From a virus (Duplodnaviria; Heunggongvirae; Uroviricota; Caudoviricetes): a stretch of DNA of 50,069 nt. Under the pieces are notes generated by a model. It saw nothing but the letters and a program-made list of their open reading frames with translations. It did not search any database and was not told the origin of the DNA. This document shows, in pieces, positions 47,238 through 50,069 of this stretch; positions within the stretch are counted from its first letter, which is position 1; each line of letters begins with the position of its first letter. The DNA lies in the IMG/VR virus record IMGVR_UViG_641522650_000006; one strand, given 5' to 3'. The translations under genes were made by a program, and so were the position numbers.

Positions 47238-47677
47238 ACTTTGCCCTCAGACTGGCGCGTGAGATGGGGAGACCCGACTGGCGCGCCATGCTTGCCGGGA
47301 TGACATCCACCGAATATGCCGACTGGCACCGTTTTTACCGCACGCATTATTTTCAGGATACCCAGCTGGATATGCATTTTTCCGGGCTGACGTACGCTGT
47401 ACTCAGCCTGTTTTTTTGCGATCCGGATATGCATCCCTCTGATTTCAGTCTGCTTGTCCCCCGGCATGAGGAAGAGCAGGTGGAGAGGCCGGATGAGGAC
47501 AAAATGCTGATGCAGAAAGCGGCAGGACTTGCCGGAGGCGTCCGGTTCGGTGGGGACGGAGGGCGCGATATTTTATCGTCTGCGGATGTGGCGGATGTCA
47601 TGGTGGATGATGCCGCATTAATGATGGCTTCAGCGGGGATTCCGGGAGGTGTGAGATATGTCCCAGCCGGTTGGTGA
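47213..47677 (+). CDS. T: T portion of the G-T tail assembly chaperone, reached by -1 frameshift
   Basis: Slippery heptamer GGGAAAG at 47213-47219; the -1 frame stays open to 47677. Confidence 0.6.
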   Translation, partial: GKVFDGELNFALRLAREMGRPDWRAMLAGMTSTEYADWHRFYRTHYFQDTQLDMHFSGLTYAVLSLFFCDPDMHPSDFSLLVPRHEEEQVERPDEDKMLMQKAAGLAGGVRFGGDGGRDILSSADVADVMVDDAALMMASAGIPGGVRYVPAGW

Positions 47678-49407
47678 TCTTGTTATTGACCTGAGTCTGG
47701 ATGCTGTCCGTTTCGATGAGCAGATGAGCCGGGTAAGGCGTCATTTTTCAGGTCTGGATACCGACGCCAGAAAAACCGCCAGTGCTGTTGAACAGGGCCT
47801 GAGCCGCCAGGCGCTGGCTGCACAAAAAGCCGGGATTTCCGTCGGGCAGTATAAAGCGGCCATGCGAACCCTGCCCGCACAGTTTACGGATATCGCCACG
47901 CAGCTTGCAGGTGGTCAGAATCCCTGGCTGATCCTGCTGCAACAGGGCGGTCAGGTGAAGGACTCCTTCGGCGGGATGATCCCCATGTTCAGGGGGCTTG
48001 CCGGTGCGATCACCCTGCCGATGGTCGGGGTCACCTCGCTGGCGGTGGCGACAGGTGCGCTGGTGTACGCCTGGTACCTGGGAGATTCCACGCTTTCAGC
48101 GTTTAATAAAACCCTGGTTCTTTCCGGTAATCAGTCCGGACTGACTGCCGATCGTATGCTGACTCTCTCAAGAGCCGGGCAGGCAGCAGGGCTGACGTTT
48201 AACCAGGCGAAAGAGTCACTGGCAGCCCTGGTGAATGCCGGTGTGCGTGGTGGTGAACAGTTTGATGCCATCAACCAGAGTGTCGCGCGTTTTGCGTCTG
48301 CATCCGGTGTGGAGGTGGATAAAGTCGCTGAAGCCTTCGGGAAGCTGACCACTGACCCGACGTCGGGACTGATGGCGATGGCGCGCCAGTTCCGTAACGT
48401 GACGGCAGAGCAGATTGCGTATGTTGCACAGCTGCAGCGTTCCGGAGACGAGGCCGGGGCATTGCAGGCGGCGAACGATATCGCCACGAAAGGCTTTGAT
48501 GAGCAGACCCGTCGCCTGAAAGAAAACATGGGAACACTGGAGACCTGGGCGGATAAAACAGGGAAGGCATTCAAATCGATGTGGGATGCCATTCTGGATA
48601 TCGGTCGTCCTGAATCCTCAGCGGATATGCTCGCCAGTGCGCAGAAGGCATTTGATGAGGCGGATAAAAAATGGCAGTGGTACCAGAGCCGGAGCCAGCG
48701 CCGGGGAAAGACCTCCTCTTTTCGTGCGAACCTTCAGGGGGCATGGGATGACCGGGAAAATGCCCGTCTGGGTCTGGCAGCGGCCACGCTGCAGTCGGAT
48801 ATGGAAAAAGCCGGTGAACTGGCGGCAAGGGACCGGGCTGAGCGTGAGGCGTCACAGCTGAAGTATACCGGAGAGGCGCAGAAGGCGTATGAGCGCCTGC
48901 AGACGCCGCTGGATAAATATACCGCCCGTCAGAAAGAGCTGAATAAGGCCCTGAAAGACGGAAAAATCCTGCAGGCGGATTGCAACACGCTGATGGCGTC
49001 GGCAAAAAAGGATTATGAATAGACGCTGAAAAAGCCGTCCGGTGTGAAGGTGTCTGCCGGTGAGCGCCAGGAAGACCGGGCGCATGCAGCCATGCTGGCG
49101 CTTGAAACCGAGCTCAGGACGCTGGAAAAACACAGCGGTGTGAATGAGAAAATCAGCCAGCAGCGCCGGGATTTATGGGAAGCGGAAAATCAGTATGTGG
49201 TCCTGAAAGAGGCCGCCACGAAACGGCAGTTATCTGAGCAGGAAAAATCCCTGCTGGCTCATGAGAAAGAGACGCTGGAGTACAAACGCCAGCTGGCTGA
49301 GCTGGGAGACAAGATTGAACACCAGAAGCGGCTGAATGAGCTGGCACAGCAGGCGGCGCGGTTTGAACAGCAGCAGAGCGCGAAGCAGGCGGCAATCAGC
49401 GCAAAAG
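47658..49407 (+). pseudogene. H: tail tape-measure protein H, in-frame amber at 49020-49022 and truncated by IS911 at 49408
   Basis: lambda gpH-like N-terminus; ...KKDYE-TAG-TLKKP... in one frame; reading frame runs into the IS911 terminus. Confidence 0.8.
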
Positions 49408-50069
49408 TGAAGTGGTCAACAAAAACTGGCCACCGAGTTAGAGTTTTTCCAGTATCGATTTTCCGATTCGTTTGGGGGTAACCCACCGTTATATTCGTGC
49501 GGTCTTAGTGCGCTGTAATATCCAACGATATAGTCCGTTATGGCGTGAGCTGCCTCGCTGAAGCTTACGTAACCCACCACCGGCATCCATTCGTTCTTCA
49601 GACTCCTGAAGAAGCGTTCCATTGGGCTGTTATCCCAGCAGTTTCCGCGCCGGCTCATACTCTGTCTGATCTGGTATCGCCACAATAACTGCCGGAACTG
49701 CCTGCTCGTATAATGACTGCCCTGATCGCTGTGGAACATCACCCCGCCGGGCTTACCACGGGTTTCCCATGCCATTTCCAGCGCTTTCATGGTGAGCCTG
49801 CTGTCCGGCGAGAACGACATGGCCCAGCCCACTGGTTTTCTTGCGAACAGGTCGAGAACAACGGCGAGGTACGCCCAGCGCTTACCCGTCCAGATACAGG
49901 TCACATCACCGCACCACACCTGATTTGGCTCGGTCACGGCGAACTGCCTTTCAAGGTAGTTAGGGATAGCAACATGTTCATGACCACCACGTTTATACCG
50001 GTGAGTCGGCTGCTGACAGCTGACCAGCCCCAGCTCTTTCATGAGCCTGCCAGCAAGCCAGCGTCCCAT
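49408..50069 (-). mobile_element. IS911, second copy, continues beyond the window end
   Basis: Terminus TGAAGTGGTCAACAAAAACTGGCCACCGAG at 49408; uninterrupted OrfB reading frame. Confidence 0.85.
49416..50069 (-). CDS. IS911 OrfB transposase, 5' end outside window
   Basis: 217 residues collinear with the two OrfB fragments at 2661-3070 and 4381-4738. Confidence 0.85.

Follow-up and report, generated by a model that had tools for sequence, protein, structure and literature searches.

The closest described counterparts of the locus reported here are the cryptic lambdoid prophages of Shigella and Escherichia coli that insertion sequences (IS) have eroded, among them IS-scarred prophages known from Shigella genome papers and K-12 remnants such as Rac, DLP12 and Qin, and, at the level of the single gene, the tail tape-measure protein gpH of phage lambda (853 amino acids, aa). 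We analyzed IMG/VR record IMGVR_UViG_641522650_000006, a 50,069-nucleotide (nt) stretch of Caudoviricetes DNA (hereafter the window), in which the counterpart of lambda gene H carries an in-frame amber codon and then runs into an IS911 element. Taking the explanation as a whole, with the pseudogene state of H, the amber and an IS911-linked deletion judged jointly, we consider it very likely that H is a doubly inactivated pseudogene in a defective, decaying lambda-like (lambdoid) prophage, located beside potB in a chromosome of the Shigella boydii type. Events of this kind are already known as ordinary prophage decay in Shigella. Five IS, IS911 among them, have expanded in all species of the genus, and each reference genome holds at least 199 pseudogenes arising from IS or other mutations (PMC7373316). 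New here are the clonal inheritance of the amber and the finding that, in sibling genomes, IS911 marks a loss of ~11 kb comprising the whole tail-tip and fiber module.

The tape-measure gene and its amber codon

The first open reading frame (ORF) of H, 47658..49022, opens with ATG at 47658, encodes 454 aa and closes at TAG 49020-49022. The parts of the locus on which the argument turns are as follows.

47658..49019, plus strand: H codons 1-454, the translatable N-terminal fragment (ORF list, Pfam TMP_2, alignments to intact genes and to lambda)
49020..49022, plus strand: in-frame amber TAG, codon 455 of H (base-by-base comparison with L001 and L002, lambda alignment, siblings)
49023..49407, plus strand: H codons 456-583 plus one base, 3' of the stop and in the same phase, a remnant left untranslated except for the spurious ORF that starts at 49044 (ungapped alignment to intact H)
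49044..49481, plus strand: chimeric ORF of 145 aa, with a GTG start in the H remnant and 74 nt of IS911 at its end (ORF list)

Over all 1,750 nt between the H start and the IS (47658-49407), the window aligns without gaps to intact tape-measure genes, at 99.7% DNA identity to an 857-aa gene annotated "phage tail tape measure protein" in E. coli DA33133 and at 99.5% to the "tail length tape-measure protein H" of phage PhiR12_1, and the segment is therefore not a chance open frame. Of the 5,426 complete E. coli genomes searched, 3,726 contain matching tape-measure genes, as do 145 phage records. Within the first 454 residues, Pfam TMP_2 covers residues 54-256 (E 4.7e-68; 229.4 bits against a cutoff of 30.2); the 49023..49407 remnant has a weak match to TMP_4, below the cutoff.

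The initial annotation had proposed an alignment to lambda gpH, which we ran: the two are collinear and 77% identical across 577 aligned residues, the amber falls at Ala448 of lambda, and the alignment stops at lambda residue 578. Like lambda H, the window gene follows V, G and T, overlaps the end of T with its start, carries TMP_2 (PF06791) and is accompanied by the G GGA AAG frameshift site, and we read it as a gpH homolog. Unlike lambda gpH, it stops at codon 455 and physically ends at codon 583, with the C-terminal 274 residues gone and, along with them, the Tape_meas_lam_C domain (PF09718) that intact relatives of 853-857 aa carry. Because the sequence is interrupted and retains neither a full-length frame nor Tape_meas_lam_C, it belongs to the family as a pseudogene and not as a functional member.

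The reading frame keeps one phase on both sides of TAG 49020-49022, as had been proposed from the sequence alone. The codon at 49023 continues in the H phase (TLKKPSGVKVSAGERQ...), and the ORF list and the ungapped alignments to intact H and lambda gpH agree on this. Six differences separate the window from DA33133 across 47658-49407, one of them an A for C at 49021, and both of the closest intact genes (99.5-99.7%; DA33133 and PhiR12_1) read TCG (Ser455) where the window has TAG. As judged from these alignments, the amber is a true nonsense substitution, TCG>TAG, through a single C>A transversion at 49021, and would end H translation after 454 of 857 residues.

To place the window among its relatives we used the chimeric ORF, whose exact 145-aa product, in a protein look-up of a public assembly collection, retrieved six public contigs of the same lineage (CP026866, CP026762, CP026867, CP026795, AMKC01000100 and LPTH01000245; hereafter the siblings). 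Each differs from the window by 0-1 mismatch across the last 1,026 nt. The TAG is present at the same codon in all six, as are the neighboring lineage-specific changes at 48211, 48982 and 49040, and the accession prefixes (CP0267xx/CP0268xx, AMKC01, LPTH01) indicate that the siblings come from what appear to be three or more sequencing projects. An error in sequencing or assembly, which would leave IS911 as the only lesion in H, is accordingly of negligible probability: it would have to account for just one base of difference from the nearest intact genes, in a comparison of assemblies and not of reads, but the same TAG stands in seven sequences from apparently at least three projects and is therefore an inherited mutation, and the accompanying changes at the three other positions are shared as well, as expected of inherited mutations. 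The amber reported in the initial annotation is thus genuine at the level of assemblies.

Outside the lineage, a 50-mer containing the TAG found no exact match among the 5,426 complete E. coli genomes (best 98%, with one mismatch), and neither the exact TAG context nor the exact H/IS911 junction described below matched any of the GTDB species representatives. Shigella is probably not a species of its own among those representatives, which is the likely cause of the empty GTDB searches.

A stop codon within an otherwise continuous frame might also be decoded, by a suppressor tRNA or by programmed read-through, or the 454-aa fragment might have been kept for a function of its own. The intact late genes A to T and G/T frameshift site in the window speak for such a reading, as does the fact that gene callers annotate the H fragment as a gene. 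We nevertheless give it very little credence. The tRNAs encoded in the window are Met-CAT, Arg-TCG and Arg-TCT, with no suppressor of anticodon CUA among them (the scope of this search being the window, with the rest of the host genome outside it), and no recoding signal was found for the H amber. Read-through would gain just 128 codons before the IS. The TAG is not conserved either, relatives having TCG, lambda an Ala codon, and none of the 5,426 complete E. coli genomes a TAG at that position; moreover, the H fragment gathers non-synonymous changes and frameshifts within the lineage, and siblings lose other late genes.

The IS911 boundary and the missing tail-tip module

The right-hand end of the window holds two further features.

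49408..50069, minus strand: IRR end and 3' 662 bp of IS911, with the window ending inside the element (100% identity to annotated IS911)
49416..50069, minus strand: 3' part of IS911 orfB (217-aa product with rve and rve_3 domains)

The initial annotation had H running into the terminus of IS911 at 49408, and the boundary is indeed sharp. H homology ends exactly after 49407, where the intact gene goes on CCCGCGG / CCCGCGGCC and the window instead reads TGAAGTGGTCAAC..., with the IS911 terminal sequence TGAAGTGGTCAACAAAAACTGGCCACC. From 49408 to 50069, 662 of 662 nt are identical to the "IS3-like element IS911 family transposase" annotated on plasmids of Shigella boydii and S. dysenteriae, and the same segment corresponds to nt 588-1249 of the complete 1,249-bp IS911 in one sibling (L004). 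The transposase is encoded on the minus strand, which makes 49408 the IRR end. In the siblings the element has the OrfA/OrfB arrangement, with a 100-aa HTH_Tnp_1 OrfA. The sibling junction copy (L004 10365-11613) measures 1,249 bp between its terminal TG...CA; the canonical length of IS911 is 1,250 bp. The end coordinate given earlier for H, 49481, turns out to be the stop of the chimeric ORF, which is spurious, an artifact of the junction, yet useful as a lineage tag.

In its terminal sequence, its 100% identity and its orfB with rve, the element resembles the IS911 copies (IS3 family) of Shigella chromosomes and plasmids. It departs from a usual IS911 insertion in that the siblings' junction copy has no 3-bp target-site duplication, the triplets that flank it in five siblings being AAG and GGT. 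The duplication is missing because this copy marks a deletion junction; its absence speaks against a simple insertion and not against the element being IS911.

The same H/IS911 junction is found in six of six siblings. Five of these contigs extend past it, and in each the 1,249-bp IS911 gives way to GGTGTTGCTGAACC...GAGTAA, which is the final 70 nt of the tail-fiber assembly gene tfa (the sequence directly after the IS is GGTGTTGCTGAACCGTGTTGATACATCAACTGCACCTGATATTGAGTGGCCGACTTCACCTGCAGAGTAA); past the tfa remnant come potB, potA, pepT, roxA, phoQ, phoP and purB. Since the 3' part of H does not lie beyond the IS in the siblings, H is truncated, not merely interrupted. In E. coli O104:H4 2009EL-2071 the same site near potB is occupied by an intact lambdoid prophage, and there (locus L009) the two junction sequences stand at 5070 and 16000, 10,929 bp apart, with the rest of H, M, L, K, I, J, lom, the tail fiber gene (stf) and most of tfa between them. 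Measured against this prophage, the siblings have lost ~10.9 kb that held the 3' third of H, the genes M, L, K, I, J, lom and stf, and most of tfa, and we infer that the window's own far side is the same. That H is "truncated by IS911" therefore holds, with the refinement that the IS sits at a deletion junction and is not a plain insertion, and the two inactivating events claimed for the gene are borne out as the C>A amber and the IS911-linked deletion.

Only a slight probability attaches to a simple IS911 insertion after which H resumes with its 3' third just past the end of the window, followed by the tail genes. The window stops 662 bp into the IS with the far side unseen, and under this alternative AAG and then CCCGCGGCCTCACTG... 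(the rest of H, CCCGCGG...) would follow the element. However, the five extending siblings, whose left junction is identical, show the last 70 nt of tfa and potB, with no duplication. No genome was found that combines the junction with a retained H 3' part, the chimeric 145-aa ORF having retrieved the deleted form only. The junction is also absent from the 5,426 complete E. coli genomes, in which a 70-mer of the H/IS911 junction is never covered across the junction.

The sibling CP026762 immediately precedes the plasmid CP026763 (S. boydii NCTC 9850), and CP026795 likewise precedes a plasmid described as Shigella boydii; on this adjacency of accessions we assign the lineage to the S. boydii type. 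The window is a seventh, slightly different member, with a private T at 48079 (Q141L). The TAG and the H/IS911 junction, common to the members, provide clean clonal markers for one Shigella boydii-type lineage. For annotation, the locus should be given as a pseudogene (H fragment) and an IS911-bounded deletion, and neither the 454-aa nor the 145-aa ORF should count as a gene. With a point mutation and an IS-linked deletion in one gene, it is a textbook example of two routes of prophage decay, of little import beyond annotation.

Mechanism of the deletion and order of events

An IS without a target duplication between sequences that are not normally adjacent is the standard signature of IS-IS recombination or of adjacent deletion. 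Here, the IS911-associated deletion removed everything from H nucleotide 1751 through to 70 nt before the end of tfa (~10.9 kb), and a single IS911, lacking a target-site duplication, remains at the junction. The deletion presumably arose in two steps: IS911 inserted, and the DNA was subsequently lost, whether by a deletion adjacent to the element or by its recombination with another IS911 copy in direct orientation. When an IS copy lacks a target duplication, the usual reported cause is IS-IS recombination or a deletion adjacent to it; for IS150, a member of the IS3 family, 14 of 14 deletion-linked movements during the long-term evolution experiment were insertions followed by adjacent deletion (PMC11708052). 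In the order that we prefer, IS911 would have inserted near the 3' end of tfa, after which the DNA beside its IRR end would have been lost back to H.

A serious competitor to single-copy adjacent deletion, although we put it at somewhat under an even chance, is that a pair of IS911 copies in direct orientation, one inserted in H and the other in tfa, underwent homologous recombination. Shigella chromosomes hold many IS911 copies (PMC7373316), the window itself contains a second one at 2260-4819, and IS-IS recombination is a standard source of missing target duplications (PMC11708052). Against this, no genome turned up in which only one of the presumed pair of insertions is present, the additional copy in the window cannot be the partner since it lies in inverted orientation, and every IS3-family deletion in the long-term evolution experiment was accounted for by adjacent deletion (PMC11708052). 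Both routes yield the same sequence. We also considered, and rejected, an inversion involving the two IS911 copies of the window, which are inverted relative to each other: their flanking triplets, TCC/CAC and AAG/GGT, do not fit the reciprocal pattern that it predicts.

Among the complete E. coli genomes searched, we found no intermediate with an IS911-tfa junction, the sole near match being an unrelated E. coli from a dog. In this strain, Z1323PEC0014 (L013, NZ_CP148268.1), an IS911-like IS3-family element at 2293-3613 is joined to the tfa 3' end, 5 nt from the position of the Shigella junction and in the same orientation, with its other side in a phage lysozyme gene. The different left endpoint marks it as an independent event, and we rejected it as the intermediate. 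It weakly favors insertion near the tfa 3' end first, followed by leftward loss; there may be a target hot spot close to where tfa ends, or the search design may have singled out a coincidence.

Retained late genes and wider erosion of the prophage

Several points weigh against the overall account of H given above. The window ends within IS911, and the far side is seen only in the siblings, through the five contigs that reach past the junction. The exact 454-aa product of the window has no record in the assembly collection. Finally, 13 of 13 late genes, from terminase A to T (37581-47677), are uninterrupted in the window, which could mean retention. The last two of these late genes are the chaperone genes next to H.

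46806-47237, plus strand: tail assembly chaperone gene G (ORF list)
47264-47677, plus strand: tail assembly chaperone gene T, whose end is overlapped by the H start at 47658 (ORF list)

Both are intact although their client H is dead, and the lambda-type -1 slippery heptamer G GGA AAG is intact at 47213-47219. In the siblings, G and T match Pfam Phage_TAC_2 and Phage_tail_T. The T protein of the window is a common allele (27,721 blocks), and the matches returned were intact E. coli prophages only. That the 454-residue H fragment, the open genes A to T and the G/GT chaperone are kept or expressed for the benefit of the host, for example as tail-less particles or with an exclusion function, seems to us very improbable. 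Open A to T genes are compatible with recent inactivation and suggest fairly recent decay. With no tape measure, tail tip or fiber, the prophage could form no tails, and the H fragment would drift neutrally.

The differences across the prophage, small in number, suggest such drift and lean the way expected of a pseudogene under relaxed selection. Three of four lineage-specific changes in the H fragment are non-synonymous, as are 8 of 11 differences between the window and L004 across A to H, both counts being small; four window-L004 differences cluster at 42543-42554 in gene C. The siblings show additional, independent decay: the H fragment of CP026867 (L005) carries two more 1-bp deletions, equivalent to window positions 48703 and 48737, and the portal, C, FII, U or V genes are split in three siblings (L003, L005 and L006).

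Elsewhere in the window, other IS and rearranged segments were found.

2260-4819: second IS911, inverted relative to the copy at 49408 and split by an IS3-family element
3071-4380: the 1,310-bp IS3-family element inside the second IS911, inserted at nt 809-811 of that copy with a 3-bp duplication (296-aa rve ORF at 3448-4338)
27506-30348/34691-37533 and 31607-32798/33508-34699: arms of two composites, inverted
32764-33183, minus strand: Nu1-like small-terminase fragment in a 709-bp spacer, inverted relative to terminase A (37581-39566)
20414-20663: tRNA-Met/Arg/Arg
21535-23415: 626-aa protein (Pfam DUF1737, SASA acetylesterase and DUF6645)

Positions 1-753 begin within an IS1 copy (DDE_Tnp_IS1 by Pfam on ORF 1..378, minus strand), and homology to a related E. 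coli prophage starts only at 754, downstream of int and xis of that prophage; the integrase (int/xis) end appears to have been cut off by IS1. The second IS911 is flanked by TCC and CAC, which are not a target duplication, and a rearrangement probably took place there as well. Between 27506 and 37533 lie two inverted, 100%-identical composites of ~4 kb made of IS110-family and IS66-family elements, the left arm holding an additional IS3-family element of ~1,267 bp. Because the Nu1 fragment is inverted and disrupted, packaging is probably dead too.

In all this the prophage resembles the cryptic lambdoid prophages that IS have eroded in Shigella and E. coli, with its int/xis end lost to IS1, its tail-tip end to an IS-linked deletion, its packaging region scrambled by IS66- and IS110-family elements, and pseudogenes made by point mutation. 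We see no difference in kind from those prophages; the remnant in the window still has its uninterrupted A to T genes.

The segment 19315-23415 resembles the late region of Shiga toxin (Stx) phages. In the ~870 bp between the tRNAs and the esterase there is no ORF of Shiga-toxin size. A 349-aa ORF in the segment is presumably a DNA methyltransferase, judged by eye, and the 626-aa protein is a putative NanS-p-like protein.

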